Shown piece after piece: positions 20,706 to 25,021 of a DNA stretch of 37,520 bases. The stretch comes from Candidatus Micrarchaeia archaeon (GTDB lineage Archaea; Micrarchaeota; Micrarchaeia; Micrarchaeales; CABMGC01). A program made the position numbers and the translations under genes. The stretch is taken from NCBI GenBank assembly GCA_049976845.1, contig JBMFHL010000005.1:1-37520 (forward strand), given 5' to 3'. How positions within the stretch are numbered: position 1 is the stretch's first letter; each line of letters starts with the position of its first letter. The notes beneath the pieces are model-generated. The model was given only the letters and a program-made list of their open reading frames with translations. It was not told the DNA's origin and did no database searches.

Positions 20706-21269
20706 ATGGCAGATCAAATAATAGTAATAACCGGCACTCCTGGAGTTGGGAAAACAACTTTTGCAAAGAAACTAAACAAGATAATGAACGCAAAGCTAGT
20801 TGAGGCAAACGAGGTAATAAGCAAATACAAGCTTTATACAGGAACTGACAAATACGGTACGAAAATAGTAAAGATGCGAAGCCTCGAGAAAAAGCTAAAC
20901 GAGATTGCGGCTAAAGAGAAAGGCCCATTGATACTAGAAGGCCACATATTGGCTGATATAAGGATAAAAGGTGCAATAGCAATAGTGCTGAGAGAGCATT
21001 TAACAGAGTTAAAAGAAAGGCTGAAGAAAAGGCATTATGCCAGTGAAAAGATAATGGATAATCTTGTAAGCGAGGCAACGGATTACTGCGGCATAGAAGC
21101 AAGCAGGAGGTACAAAAAAGTATTCGAATTCTATTCTCGTGACAAGAGCCTGGAAAAGAAAATACTAAATGCAATCAAGGGCAAAGCAGAGGGCGAATAC
21201 ATAGAGCTGCTCCCAGAGCTAAAGCAAATACTGAATCACAAAGAGATTTTTTCTAAAAGTGCAGCATAG
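20706..21269 (+). CDS. Adenylate kinase, AK6/Fap7-like
   Basis: IVITGTPGVGKTT, ILEGH and LKERLKKRHY...KIMDNL. Confidence 0.85.
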   Translation: MADQIIVITGTPGVGKTTFAKKLNKIMNAKLVEANEVISKYKLYTGTDKYGTKIVKMRSLEKKLNEIAAKEKGPLILEGHILADIRIKGAIAIVLREHLTELKERLKKRHYASEKIMDNLVSEATDYCGIEASRRYKKVFEFYSRDKSLEKKILNAIKGKAEGEYIELLPELKQILNHKEIFSKSAA

Positions 21270-22615
21270 GCTTCAGGCGCATACTTCCTAGGTATGTTAG
21301 AGAGTACCTTCGCTTTAGACATTTTTATCTCTTTTCCCAAATTCATTTCCTTAACTCTCACTATTGCCTTTAATGCATCAGAGGCATTCCTATACCTCTT
21401 TTTCTCTATTGCATAGAGCATGTCGTCTTTTATAATAAGACCAAGGGCCTTTGAGTGCTTCTCAATAAATTTTTCAGAATATTCTCCTTTGAAAGTGCTC
21501 GGGCCTTTCATCATTCTAGACGCTGATCTGTCGTCAGGCATGAAATAAAGCAAAAGCCCTTCGCCTTTTGAAATAAAAGAAGAATAGATATAAGTTTCAA
21601 ATCCCTCTTTAGCAGCTTCTGCCATTATAGCATTGCCAATCTTGTTAAGCTGAGGCCAAACAATATCCTCGCTCTCATCAGGAACCTTTACTACTATTAA
21701 ATACGGCCTTAAGCCGCTGTTCTTCTCAAACGCCTTTAAGAGCGACGGAGTTTTAAGGGAGGAAAATCCTTTACCATAGAAAAACCTAAGGCTTGGCTTC
21801 TTAAGCAGCTCCCTGGCTACTACTACAAACCTGGAGAGGGATTCGATTGAAACTCCAGCCGCAACATTCCTATTTGGATCCACAGGGTCTATTACGACGA
21901 ACTGCGCATTGAATTTCCTGAATATACTCTCATCCCTAACAATACTTTTATCCTTAGGGACTATGCACATAGGCAGTGAGAATTTGGTGGCGGCATCAAG
22001 CAGCTTTTCAAGCGAGCCGAAGGTATATACAAGCAGCTCACATAGGTAGCCTGAGAAGCCCTTTACCTTAACTTCTGCGCCGTATATGTGATGAGCCTTG
22101 AGTAGATATTTAAGCAATCTGACATCATCCCTCTGCCTGTCAGTGAAATTAGAATTTATGAAATCTGTGTGCAACGGGCTCCTATCAACGCTAGTCCCCA
22201 TCTCATTTATGTTGCTTATTTTGAAAGCAGGCACAAGGTCTACTTTTATGCCAAAATCATCTAAGTAAAGCCTCGCGTATGCATGCTCAGCATACTTAAT
22301 CTCAAGCCTCTCGTGCTTTTTCTTGCCAATAATCATTTTTGCATACTTTAAGCCAAGCTTGGATACCTCCTCATCGTCATATCTCTTGTTGAAAAGCATG
22401 AAAATATCTATATCAGAATCGCCAGATAGATTAGTGCTCCTTGCTATAGAACCTACAATCCTAAGCTCTACGTCTTTAGGTATTATCTTTTCTAGCCTCG
22501 ACATCACTTCGTTTGCATGGGCAATAGTGCTTTTCACTTCAAGATCATCAGGTTTTATCTCCTTCAATACCTGCCCAAAGATATTCCTAAGCTTCTTCTC
22601 CTTCTCTGCTTCCAT
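21236..22615 (-). CDS. cca: Archaeal class I CCA-adding enzyme
   Basis: VGSIARSTNLSGDSDIDIF, YAEHAY, VDRSPLH, YGAE..GFSGYLCELL and DPVDPNRNVAA; 34-bp convergent overlap with the kinase gene. Confidence 0.95.
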   Translation of the reverse strand: MEAEKEKKLRNIFGQVLKEIKPDDLEVKSTIAHANEVMSRLEKIIPKDVELRIVGSIARSTNLSGDSDIDIFMLFNKRYDDEEVSKLGLKYAKMIIGKKKHERLEIKYAEHAYARLYLDDFGIKVDLVPAFKISNINEMGTSVDRSPLHTDFINSNFTDRQRDDVRLLKYLLKAHHIYGAEVKVKGFSGYLCELLVYTFGSLEKLLDAATKFSLPMCIVPKDKSIVRDESIFRKFNAQFVVIDPVDPNRNVAAGVSIESLSRFVVVARELLKKPSLRFFYGKGFSSLKTPSLLKAFEKNSGLRPYLIVVKVPDESEDIVWPQLNKIGNAIMAEAAKEGFETYIYSSFISKGEGLLLYFMPDDRSASRMMKGPSTFKGEYSEKFIEKHSKALGLIIKDDMLYAIEKKRYRNASDALKAIVRVKEMNLGKEIKMSKAKVLSNIPRKYAPEAYAALLEKISL

Positions 22616-22661
22616 GATAACTAATAGCATTAAAAACCTTAAATTAATAACTTTATTGCAG

Positions 22662-22733
22662 GGGCTCGTGGCTCAGTAGCAGAGCGTCTCGTTCGCAACG
22701 AGAAGGTCGCGGGTGCGATTCCCGCCGAGTCCA
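22662..22733 (+). tRNA. tRNA-Ala(CGC); CCA not encoded
   Basis: Acceptor GGGCTCG/CGAGTCC with G3:U70, anticodon arm TCTCG-TTCGCAA-CGAGA, T arm GCGGG-TGCGATT-CCCGC. Confidence 0.93.
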
Positions 22734-22734
22734 C

Positions 22735-22918: not shown

Positions 22919-24244
22919 TCACGGATAAGGTACCCTTCCATAAGCCCTAGGAAATGATATAGTATTTCTTATATTCTCTATGCCGAGTGCCCACCTCACA
23001 ATTCTATCTATGCCAGCACCAAGGCCCGAATGAGGCACGCATCCATAATCCCTTAATTCAATATACCATCTATACCTTTCTAGCTCCTCCGGCGTTTCCC
23101 TGCCCTTCTCTTTCATCCTGTCCAGGAGCTGCTGCTTGTCGCAGATCTTTTCAGCAACCCCTAATACTTCCCCAAAACCATTTGGCGCTATAAGGTCTTC
23201 AGTTCTTGTCTCTTTCTCGTTGCTGCTGTCCTTTTTGAAAGGGAACGACTCTGCGCTGCACGGTATGCCTTTTACAAATACTGGCTTTTTCATATCCTCT
23301 GAAAGTATTTTTTCTTCATCCGCACCCAGGCTAGCGCCCCATTCAATTTTGCTTCCTTTTGACTGGACCAAATCGATCGCCTCATCATATGTAATGCTCT
23401 TGTACGGAGGCTTAATGTCATTTATGTCAATTGCATTTTCAAACTCTTCAATTTCTTTGCTGCTTCTCTCCATCGCCGATTTTAGGGTCTCATAAAGAAC
23501 TTCCTCGGCAAATTTCTTCATGTCATCCAAATCTGCAAATGCGACCTCCGCCTTAAGGTGCCAATACTCTGCCAAATGCCTGTTTGTCCTGCTTTTTTCA
23601 GCCCTGAACGATGGCGTAATATTGTAAACTTTTTCAAAACCATGCACAGCAGCTTCTAATTGGAATGCAACACACTGCGATAAGAACATTTTCGTCCCGA
23701 AAAAATCAATAGGGAAAGCCATGCTGTCATCGTATAAGAGGGTCTGTGTTATAACAGGCGCATCTATGAAAACAAATCCTCTTTTATTGAACCATTCATG
23801 CATGGAATAGAGGAAATTGCTTTTGAATCTAAGCACTGACATCATTTTTTTGTTCCTTAAGTACAAGTGCCTTTTGCTTAAGTTGATATTTACATACTTT
23901 TTGTCAAATAAATCAAAGTTGCTCCTTGGGCTTGGCTCTATGCTAATAAGCGCCTCCCCTATTACTTCTACATCCTTAGCCTCTATCTCATGGGCTTTAT
24001 TTTTCCCTTCCTTCAAAACGCCCACAACCCTTATTGCCGATTCCGGCTTAAGCGCCTTTAACTTTTGGAATTTATCCTCTGCCACTATATTATCTTTCAC
24101 TACCACCTGAATAAAACCGGTAGAATCCTCCAAAAGCACAAAGATCGTGCCGCCAAGGTCCTGTTTCGATTTTATCCATCCGCTTATGTCTACACTATTA
24201 TTGACATCAAAGCCAAGAATATCTGAAATAAATATTTTTTTCAT
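22919..24244 (-). CDS. AsnRS-family class IIb aminoacyl-tRNA synthetase or paralog with a divergent amino-acid pocket
   Basis: OB-fold N-terminus (GWIKSKQDLGGTIF), motif 2 PSFRAEKSRTNRHLAEYW, motif 3 PHSGLGAGIDR, C-terminal FPR. Confidence 0.85.
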   Translation of the reverse strand: MKKIFISDILGFDVNNSVDISGWIKSKQDLGGTIFVLLEDSTGFIQVVVKDNIVAEDKFQKLKALKPESAIRVVGVLKEGKNKAHEIEAKDVEVIGEALISIEPSPRSNFDLFDKKYVNINLSKRHLYLRNKKMMSVLRFKSNFLYSMHEWFNKRGFVFIDAPVITQTLLYDDSMAFPIDFFGTKMFLSQCVAFQLEAAVHGFEKVYNITPSFRAEKSRTNRHLAEYWHLKAEVAFADLDDMKKFAEEVLYETLKSAMERSSKEIEEFENAIDINDIKPPYKSITYDEAIDLVQSKGSKIEWGASLGADEEKILSEDMKKPVFVKGIPCSAESFPFKKDSSNEKETRTEDLIAPNGFGEVLGVAEKICDKQQLLDRMKEKGRETPEELERYRWYIELRDYGCVPHSGLGAGIDRIVRWALGIENIRNTISFPRAYGRVPYP

Positions 24245-24379
24245 GATTTTTTTATGCCCTTCTAATTTATAAACCTTAAATTTGTTTACGTCTATTGCGC
24301 ATCTTGCTTGTCATTTTTAAAAAAATAAATGCCAAGCTATAAATACTTTTATAACAAAGTTATATTTGCAGGTGATTCA

Positions 24380-25021
24380 ATGAAAGATGAAAAAGATATC
24401 TCTAAAAGTATTGAACTAAAGCATTACGAGCTGCCTACGCTTCCATACAAATTAAATGCATTAGAACCACACATAAGCGAGCAGATTATGGATGTGCACT
24501 ACAATGGTCATCACAAAGCATATGTAAATGGTGCAAATGCTGTTCTAGATAAAATAGACAATATAACGAAGGGTTCAGTGCAAGGCTATGATATGTCTGG
24601 AATCGTAAGAAATCTTGTATTCAATGTAAATGGCCACAAACTCCACACAATGTTCTGGAATTCAATGGCGCCTGAGGGCAAAGGCGGCGGCAAGCCCGGG
24701 GGAGCACTCGCAGACCTAATAGATAAGCAGTTCGGGAGCTTTGAAATATTCAAGCAATTCTTCAACGATTCAATGAAATCCCTTACTGGAACTGGCTGGA
24801 CTGTTCTGCTGTTTGACAAAGAGATTAACAGGCTTGAAATCTCTACAATAGAAAACCATTTCATAAACCACATAGCAGAATTGCCTGTACTTCAGATAGT
24901 TGATGAGTTCGAGCATGCCTATTACCTGCAGTACAAAAACAACAGGAATGCCTATTTGGATGCGTGGTGGAATCTTGCCGATTGGGACAGCGCTGAGAAG
25001 AGGTTAAAGAGATTCATCTAA
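24380..25021 (+). CDS. sod: Fe/Mn superoxide dismutase
   Basis: [29 protein letters not shown] and [18 protein letters not shown] before ATG 24380. Confidence 0.96.

Follow-up and report, generated by a model that had tools for sequence, protein, structure and literature searches.

We analyzed a stretch of 37,520 nucleotides from a Candidatus Micrarchaeia archaeon (GCA_049976845.1, contig JBMFHL010000005.1, positions 1 to 37,520), called the window in the following. Between a gene for tRNA-Ala(CGC) and a gene resembling superoxide dismutase genes (sod) it encodes a protein similar to asparaginyl-tRNA synthetase (AsnRS), a member of a subfamily of rewired AsnRS-like synthetases that we term F. 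A note made earlier from the DNA alone (the original prediction) had described an AsnRS-like scaffold with intact ATP-binding motifs 2 and 3 and an altered amino acid pocket. Translation and alignments confirmed the scaffold and both motifs (Table 1), and the strings listed as altered, LYDD, SQCVAFQ, HLKAE, ESFPF, EVLGVAEK, KQDLG, and LED, were all found at the expected places. Judged from its sequence, F is a separate and conserved subfamily of class IIb synthetases that probably function by loading tRNA in an undescribed chemistry.

Table 1. Features of the F gene and its surroundings in the window.
Feature	Position	Strand	Description	Basis
F gene	22919..24244	-	441 aa, AsnRS-like; intact frame	
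OB-fold anticodon-binding domain	23960..24193	-	aa 18-95	Pfam PF01336, E 1.9e-14
Hinge insertion	23909..23947	-	aa 100-112, ISIEPSPRSNFDL; specific to F	Alignment
Class IIb catalytic core (class II D/K/N)	22946..23890	-	aa 119-433	Pfam PF00152, E 2.5e-59
Flipping-loop segment	23714..23743	-	TLLYDDSMAF; Y171 in place of amino-acid-contacting Glu	Y in 100% of F; E in 100% of AsnRS and AspRS
Segment LSQCVAFQLE	23654..23683	-	C191 for Ser, A/G193 for Gln; L196 and E197 retained	Alignments
Motif 2 and HLKAE	23537..23608	-	FRAEKSRTNRHLAEY and HLKAE; fRAE...RH ATP contacts intact; K231 for amide-reading Glu	Alignments
Segment AESFPFKKD	23228..23254	-	In place of AsnRS K-A-F-Y-M (E332, P335, F/Y336)	Alignments
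Mg-binding segment	23138..23179	-	GFGEVLGVAEKICD; E359 retained, A364 for Ser, K366 for side-chain-reading Arg	Alignments
Motif 3	22997..23032	-	HSGLGAGIDRIV (GAGIDR); Arg414 intact	Translation, alignment
tRNA-Ala(CGC)	22662..22734	+		ARAGORN
Left-flank gene	21236..22630	-	464 aa; looks like CCA-adding enzyme, by appearance only	60% identical collinear orthologue in same-genus genome G274
Right-flank gene (sod)	24329..25021	+	230 aa; looks like Fe/Mn superoxide dismutase, by appearance only	77% identical orthologue in G274

Like an AsnRS, the protein consists of an N-terminal OB domain and a class IIb core that contains motifs 2 and 3. An AlphaFold2 model built with 34 family sequences as input had a mean pLDDT of 91.2, and its top PDB match was the P. 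horikoshii AsnRS 1x54 (TM 0.91), which was also the best solved relative by HMMER (E 8.4e-96, 36% identity). AsnRS ranked first among the NCBIfam profiles, yet the protein stayed under both curated cut-offs (NF003037, 351.5 bits vs 414; TIGR00457, 315.3 bits vs 342.6). F members from other genomes scored 230-319 bits on the AsnRS profile, while the canonical AsnRS of the same genomes scored 428-637. Scores were also below the cut-offs for archaeal-type non-discriminating aspartyl-tRNA synthetase (AspRS; NF003483, 275 vs 353 bits; TIGR00458, 238.9 vs 368.4), archaeal asparagine synthetase A (NF005052, 156.4 vs 368), and EpmA (35 vs 264). Among 40 AsnRS, 97-100% had gaps in the columns of the hinge insertion, as did the majority of 86 AspRS, and the pLDDT of the model falls to 73 there. 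Public records annotate members of the F clade as 'asparagine--tRNA ligase' or 'hypothetical', and the ESM Atlas held generic 'asparagine--tRNA ligase' clusters only.

We compared the pocket residues of 72 F members, which come from bacteria and archaea and span 36-68% identity, to those of 40 canonical AsnRS and 86 archaeal-type AspRS. Aligned to 1x54 by HMMER, the segments VEGG, SQSAQLY, HLELE, KAFYM, and GGSQRE were found as LYDD, SQCVAFQ, HLKAE, ESFPF, and GVAEKI, respectively. Y171, C191, K231, and K366 were invariant in all 72 members, whereas the 40 AsnRS carry Glu, Ser, Glu/Asp, and Arg at these positions. Further conserved pocket changes specific to F were G/A193 for Gln, E332 for Lys, P335 for Tyr, Y336 for Met, and A364 for Ser. 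In a 34-row alignment of F (A1) the invariant residues were Y171, Q190, C191, L196, E197, H229, K231, E233, D350, E359, G362, A364, E365, K366, and R414, while D172 and D173 vary within F. All 120 best homologues (40-68% identity) contained the rewired segments. Since the same positions are conserved but different in 72 members compared to 40 AsnRS, the pocket changes are far beyond chance, and the coordinated alteration that had been proposed is a property of the whole family.

According to PMC7387524, AsnRS reads the side-chain amide of asparagine by hydrogen bonds from one Glu and one Arg, and AspRS reads the carboxylate of aspartate by salt bridges from a Lys and an Arg. For human AsnRS, PMC10831071 describes that the flipping-loop Glu (E279) contacts the Asn moiety and that the motif 2 Glu contacts the adenylate. 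In our 40 AsnRS the two amide-reading positions were E (fraction 0.82; Asp in the type found in the candidate phyla radiation, CPR) and R (1.00). F has neither this Glu and Arg, nor the flipping-loop Glu, nor the Ser and Gln of the QSxQ segment, which we take from AspRS structures to hold the amino acid. The archaeal-type AspRS pocket (QSPQ..K, Asp/Arg) was not found in F either. Going by the alignments, F is without any known asparagine contact, and its side-chain pocket has acquired two lysines. Changes from Glu to Lys and from Arg to Lys are those expected when a carboxamide is exchanged for a carboxylate. The original prediction had offered a new amino acid as one of three alternatives. 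The Lys/Lys pocket suggests an acidic substrate.

The ATP and Mg residues R214, E216, R222, H223, D350, E359, and R414 were identical across the F, AsnRS, and AspRS groups, and the OB core (W23, R28, F35, D40, Q46, G75, and E86) was common to all three. This conservation suggests that a carboxylate is adenylated by F and that its tRNA has an anticodon of the Asp/Asn/Lys type. The OB domain had been predicted to be kept but altered. Retention was correct, whereas the alterations do not characterize the family: Q28 was found only in the copy in the window (R in 92% of F), and the Arg of 'LRD' is variable across F. A ligase for a non-tRNA acceptor was the second alternative; such an enzyme, comparable to EpmA or AsnA, is unlikely with the OB core conserved. 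EpmA/PoxA, the lysyl-tRNA synthetase (LysRS) paralogue modifying EF-P, has a non-translational product and is, like F, a class IIb enzyme whose pocket was retuned, but it has no OB domain. Likewise, archaeal asparagine synthetase A (PDB 3p8t; NF005052) belongs to the clade of AsnRS relatives and shares the class II core, but only F has an OB domain; together with the profile score this agrees with the predicted distinction from that OB-less paralogue. Drift of a decaying or redundant gene is a very improbable source of the substitutions and is excluded as far as sequences allow. Q28 and a further possible route to Asn-tRNA in the genome (see below) would fit drift, but the frame is intact, the model has a pLDDT of 91, and the substituted residues are invariant over 72 members of 36-68% identity.

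The original prediction had proposed a class IIb tree with a look at the neighbouring genes. We computed a neighbour-joining bootstrap tree of our own (108 sequences, 419 columns, Kimura distances, 100 replicates), for which 30 F and 34 AspRS-type sequences were drawn at random. F was monophyletic in 100/100 bootstraps. A clade of F, AsnRS, and the OB-less proteins related to archaeal asparagine synthetase (AS-AR) was found in 99/100; F thus groups with AsnRS and not with AspRS. Branching inside this clade was weakly supported (AsnRS monophyly 44, F with AsnRS 28, AsnRS with AS-AR 42 of 100). The stem branch of F was long, 0.30 compared to 0.09 for AsnRS. In summary, canonical AsnRS (1x54; TIGR00457/NF003037) and F share the OB domain, the class IIb core, motifs 2 and 3, the Mg ligands, and the length, whereas F falls under the cut-offs and has five replaced contacts, an extra hinge insertion, and a long stem.

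When one genome per GTDB species was scanned with a sequence pattern, 199 stretches matched. A relative is encoded in 115 of them, and 80 were retained as loci L010-L089; counts out of 80 below refer to these loci and their genomes. Most genomes are metagenome-assembled genomes (MAGs), in which bins may be chimeric and absence means 'not found'. Most are from CPR bacteria, with some from DPANN archaea (Aenigm-, Parv-, Woese-, and Pacearchaeota) and a few from Clostridia, Bacteroidales, and others; the best 120 homologues came from DPANN archaea, Bathyarchaeia, Patescibacteria/CPR, and few other bacteria. Several small genomes carrying F are labelled e.g., 'Gammaproteobacteria', which look like binning labels.

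Among 201 genomes drawn evenly from the phylum of one CPR carrier, an F-level match was found in the carrier alone (637 bits). The other matches in this sample were 21 genomes at 325-380 bits and one at 254 bits; four of these lower-scoring proteins were fetched and were canonical AsnRS. Similarly, in a 151-genome sample of the archaeal phylum of the window, F was found in this genome alone (677 bits; runner-up 415). Of the 150 archaeal relatives 122 had matches of 337-415 bits, 26 had AspRS-level matches only, and two had none (the tally includes the unpublished genome G279). All 23 proteins fetched from these relatives carried canonical AsnRS motifs. F as the standard AsnRS of CPR or DPANN was therefore rejected, as no other genome among 200 CPR and 150 related archaea carries it. 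F is a rare, patchy, and apparently horizontally mobile subfamily that split from the AsnRS lineage. We found no description of it in full-text searches on AsnRS paralogues and on AsnRS in DPANN and CPR, a coverage that leaves out subscription journals.

The genome of the window (731,176 bases in 52 contigs, 90% complete) carries F and no canonical AsnRS, whereas the same-genus genome G274 has a canonical asnS and no F. At least 16 genes of the window stand in the same order in G274, and there sod directly follows tRNA-Ala(CGC) with no F in between. F is therefore an insertion of about 1.5 kb beside tRNA-Ala(CGC) in this genome. A DNA alignment to G274 at the insertion showed divergence right after the tRNA and no repeats; an integrase was not looked for.

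Besides F, the genome encodes one AspRS of bacterial type (597 aa, 660 bits on NF001750) and one of archaeal type (438 aa, 472 bits on NF003483) whose pocket is unusual, a class II LysRS along with a LysRS fragment, and HisRS; one GluRS-type gene was also found. A check for a separate AsnRS or for an indirect pathway had been suggested, and an operon of gatA, gatB, and bacterial-type aspS was found on contig C3 (C3:9641-15486; L001/L007/L009). It includes an 89-aa ORF at the gatC position (placed by position alone) and is followed by a 362-aa gene similar to type I asparaginase. In G274, the canonical asnS lies beside gatCAB-aspS exactly at the position of this asparaginase-like gene. Matches to the 362-aa protein in the relatives were only 25-30% identical and GatD-sized; it may be an amide-donor subunit. 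Because of the C3 operon a route to Asn-tRNA independent of F exists on paper in this genome, and F is not the sole possible one. The genome has one credible tRNA-Asn (C8:16483-16555), and its tRNA-Asp lies at C1:14038-14111. A second tRNA-Asn, considered as a special substrate of F, was rejected: it lies with a tRNA-Ala on the 887-bp contig C47, whose GC content of 22.8% compared to 41% for the genome looks like contamination.

GatB was found in 73 of the 80 F genomes (45/50 and 28/30 in two batches), and canonical AsnRS above the cut-off in 21 (14/50 and 7/30); among the first 50 genomes, 25 had a bacterial-type AspRS (E <= 1e-80). GatB was not found in seven genomes, namely five MAGs of Clostridia, one of Bacteroidales, and a CPR genome of 0.6 Mb. 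The Bacteroidales MAG and the five Clostridia all had canonical AsnRS and no AspRS partner next to F. Every F genome except one thus has an Asn-tRNA route independent of F.

These observations bear on the possibility that F is a true AsnRS isozyme which holds asparagine by other contacts and has spread because it is refractory to adenylate mimics or nucleoside sulfamates directed at class IIb enzymes. We regard this as nearly as likely as the reading favoured below. It would fit that the nearest relatives of F by sequence and fold are AsnRS, that F lies in the AsnRS/AS-AR clade, that F takes the place of the relatives' canonical AsnRS in the gene inventory here, and that such an enzyme would be harmless in the six GatB-less genomes with a canonical AsnRS. 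AsnRS and AspRS of class IIb are described as targets of natural and synthetic nucleoside sulfamates (PMC12262901, PMC10831071). Resistant second synthetase copies, such as the mupirocin-resistant IleRS2, are like F in being patchy, horizontal extra copies that often stand beside a housekeeping one (21/80 for F). F itself is rare and patchy and is an insertion here, where no canonical AsnRS is found. To our knowledge, the amino acid-reading residues are retained in resistant copies, whereas F changes all of them. In addition, both amide readers are Lys in F, which should favour aspartate over asparagine, and canonical AsnRS was not depleted in F genomes (21/80 compared to about 22/200 in the CPR sample).

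A conserved neighbour had been named as something to look for, and one was found. ORFs at the 80 F loci were called with our own script. In 59/80 loci F has an archaeal-type AspRS gene no more than 150 bp away, and in five more there is one within 1.5 kb; several of the remaining 16 loci stop at contig edges or use genetic code 25. All eight partner AspRS that were scored reached 458-510 bits on NF003483. The partner retains the aspartate pocket (SESGAELF, QSPQFYKQ, xDVE, and GAQREHR, in the context TTGAQREHR; e.g., L017:7373-8686), while the nucleotide-site motifs are unusual, with FRAN for FRAE in motif 2, RHDTEF, and GLTR for GLER in motif 3. The anticodon-loop residue of FRAN-type enzymes was K in 50/63, P in 7, and another residue in 6, whereas 9/15 FRAE-type enzymes carry P. 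By HMMER the partner loop aligns P-x-x-K-L-G with the discriminating T. kodakarensis enzyme, an uncertain alignment in the loop. Feng et al. are said to have found that the loop Pro is needed for recognition of tRNA-Asn by AspRS. Taken together, this suggests that the partner AspRS has the loop of a discriminating enzyme. The pairing of F with FRAN-type AspRS is not exclusive, as one CPR genome without F (L102) also has the FRAN type.

Two small, conserved proteins without a Pfam family recur near this pair. One of about 265 aa lies between F and the AspRS gene in four loci (L012:7321-8121, L011, L042, and L082). The other, of about 126 aa, follows the AspRS gene in five loci (L015:8754-9131 and four more) and is usually followed in turn by an S-adenosylmethionine methyltransferase.

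The slot after the F/AspRS pair is filled, often convergently, by genes for HIT proteins (28 loci), Amidohydro_2 proteins (22), S51 peptidases (16), or S66 peptidases (11), with at least one of the four in 54/80 loci. In a control within the same 20 genomes, these families were found at 17/20 F loci compared to 1/20 bacterial aspS loci (+/-6 kb). For the S66 neighbour, proteins of the MccF type are nearest (E 1e-63 to 1e-46), and murein carboxypeptidases give nothing better than 1e-18. Matches of the HIT neighbour are to generic HIT proteins, the S51 neighbour matches weakly, and no solved relative was found for the Amidohydro_2 neighbour. A weak GNAT match adjoins F in two loci. According to PMC9239234, MccF (S66), MccH (HIT), and MccG (S51) each destroy processed microcin C, a mimic of aspartyl-AMP that inhibits AspRS, while E. 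coli PepE is reported there to give no protection. MccE2, a GNAT enzyme, acetylates the amino group of the payload, and AspRS is then not bound (PMC9239234; PMC7157772). Homologues of MccF, MccH, and MccG, and weakly of MccE2, adjoin the F/AspRS pair in other genomes; they are neighbours and not relatives of F, and the CPR/DPANN homologues are known from genes alone. The third alternative of the original prediction, resistance to adenylate-mimic inhibitors, gains unexpected support from these neighbourhoods, all of them outside the window. They do not help F as an AsnRS isozyme: in the account of PMC9239234 microcin-C-type compounds act against AspRS and not AsnRS, and the neighbouring hydrolases therefore fail to explain a changed AsnRS pocket. 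Among the papers listed by a full-text search on microcin C or MccF in Patescibacteria, none mentioned microcin C.

We tentatively favour the reading that F loads aspartate onto tRNA-Asn to supply GatCAB and belongs to a module bypassing inhibitors, because the discriminating-type partner, the presence of GatB in 73/80 genomes, and the detoxifying neighbours fit together. F would bind tRNA-Asn through its AsnRS-type OB domain and activate aspartate, the beta-carboxylate of which would pair with K231 and K366, giving Asp-tRNA-Asn. GatCAB of this genome would then amidate Asp-tRNA-Asn to Asn-tRNA-Asn. Loss of the Glu/Ser/Gln triad binding the alpha-amine would lead to weak binding of aspartyl-adenylate mimics of the microcin-C type, since PMC9239234 describes the amino group of the mimic as essential for inhibition. 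Elsewhere, F, the AspRS with a discriminating loop, and the microcin-C-type hydrolases could form a bypass module for the supply of Asp- and Asn-tRNA; in this genome F would have arrived alone beside tRNA-Ala, the relatives' canonical AsnRS being gone. We infer the tRNA, the amino acid, and the inhibitor insensitivity of F, while its conservation, phylogeny, insertion, neighbourhoods, and co-occurrences were observed directly. In its widest form the reading is slightly less likely: an AsnRS scaffold would have been turned back into an aspartate ligase dedicated to tRNA-Asn and paired with a discriminating-type AspRS of altered nucleotide site, the two serving as a target-bypass module against aspartyl-adenylate mimics and moving among CPR, DPANN, and others with MccF/MccG/MccH-like enzymes.

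Several points weigh against aspartate as the substrate. F is akin to AsnRS and retains L196 and E197 of the AsnRS pocket. An L-Asp in the usual pose would still need its alpha-amine held, and the alignments revealed no conserved substitute for the lost contacts. In six of the seven GatB-less genomes, the five Clostridia and the Bacteroidales MAG with a canonical AsnRS, a maker of Asp-tRNA-Asn would mistranslate, so at least this subclade of F must do something else. The copy in the window has Q28 in place of the near-universal OB Arg. AsnRS was missing in 7/25 sampled genomes of the same archaeal family, and its absence here therefore need not be tied to F. None of the HIT, S51, S66, Amidohydro_2, or AspRS-partner genes was found in the window. 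Finally, the Pro/Lys rule for discrimination is attributed to Feng et al., and the loop alignment is uncertain. A true AsnRS is almost as likely as the aspartate ligase, given the six carriers without GatB that have a canonical AsnRS, the descent of F from AsnRS, and the fact that F has replaced asnS here; both remain tentative assignments.

The loss of alpha-amine contacts could also mean that F uses another substrate or chemistry, such as the side-chain carboxylate of Asp or Glu (a flipped binding like that of AsnA), a D-, N-blocked, or non-amino acid, or supply to a biosynthetic or cell-envelope pathway, with tRNA as carrier or cofactor. We consider this somewhat less likely than the two readings above. 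All three contacts (Glu, Ser, and Gln) have become Tyr, Cys, and Gly/Ala, the two distal lysines beside Glu365 would fit the zwitterionic end of an alpha-amino acid, and the invariant Cys191 and the different F clusters in Clostridia would agree with such a function. On the other hand, the OB anticodon-binding core is conserved as in AsnRS and AspRS, and the OB-less asparagine-synthetase relatives that we retrieved (AS-AR-like proteins) still have the pocket Gln, Glu, and Arg missing from F. A search of 8000 candidates (773-2205 aa) at E <= 1e-60 found no longer, fused form of F hinting at another acceptor, which is weak evidence.

For F as an aspartate ligase, the Helicobacter GluRS2 would be a functional analogue. 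This class I synthetase, derived from GluRS, is dedicated to tRNA-Gln and supplies the mischarged substrate to the amidotransferase. Whereas GluRS2 descends from GluRS, F would come from the amide-side AsnRS by change of its pocket and would be the counterpart of GluRS2 in class II.

Retuned synthetase paralogues have repeatedly revealed new biology, including EF-P modification, tRNA-dependent biosynthesis, and antibiotic self-resistance. If F is an aspartate ligase, it would represent a novel type of mischarging synthetase dedicated to the indirect pathway; as an AsnRS, it would be a second structural solution for asparagine recognition. Either way, the link to a variant AspRS and microcin-C-type enzymes suggests that ultrasmall CPR/DPANN cells face and resist aminoacyl-nucleotide antibiotics, and metabolic reconstructions that count F as AsnRS may be wrong.

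Some F loci were clustered differently. L083 (Pacearchaeota) has F in a cluster with gatB, an asparaginase-like gene, aspS, and gatA, and in L038, from a CPR genome that uses code 25, F is succeeded by an asparaginase-like gene, gatA, and gatB. Such clustering cannot tell an AsnRS from a maker of Asp-tRNA-Asn, because canonical asnS adjoins gatCAB-aspS in G274. The asparaginase-like genes of L083 and L038 encode about 355 aa and resemble the 362-aa gene after the C3 operon. A match to PF00710 (asparaginase) was found in 14/50 F genomes, a count without background control.

In the Clostridia loci L079 and L081 we found HisRS, F, a PurD-like ATP-grasp protein (268 bits, under the cut-off), a 473-aa protein, and a 298-aa protein like a class II core. 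In L080, L086, and L087 F is followed by a protein of 620-820 aa without a Pfam family. Ten F loci were scanned for T-boxes and their specifier codon. One was found, in L079 alone (a Lachnospiraceae MAG; L079:2288-2526, 105.9 bits), 3.5 kb upstream of F and before HisRS and a gene with ACT and metallo-beta-lactamase folds. Its specifier was read as AUC (Ile) and was uninformative as a read-out of the amino acid. The 80 loci contained 38 tRNAs of many kinds, tRNA-Asn three times, and enrichment of a tRNA near F was rejected for lack of a signal.

Some other translation genes of this genome were also noted. The archaeal-type 'AspRS' on contig C4 (C4:27050-28366, minus strand; L003:1480-2796) has LRQDPQLHRQ for QSPQxxKQ and EHRTCAAE for xxDxE, and may be another retuned class IIb enzyme. 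The same altered type was found in an Aenigmarchaeum genome (L150, G001) beside a canonical archaeal AspRS. The LysRS fragment is a C-terminal part of 179 aa at a contig edge (C44:1-540; L005), with the complete LysRS on C8, and may be a second copy or a bin contaminant. At C8:14883-14973 ARAGORN called a tRNA-Glu(TTC) of 91 nt, which has a long extra arm, pairs imperfectly in its acceptor, and is possibly intron-bearing or a false call.

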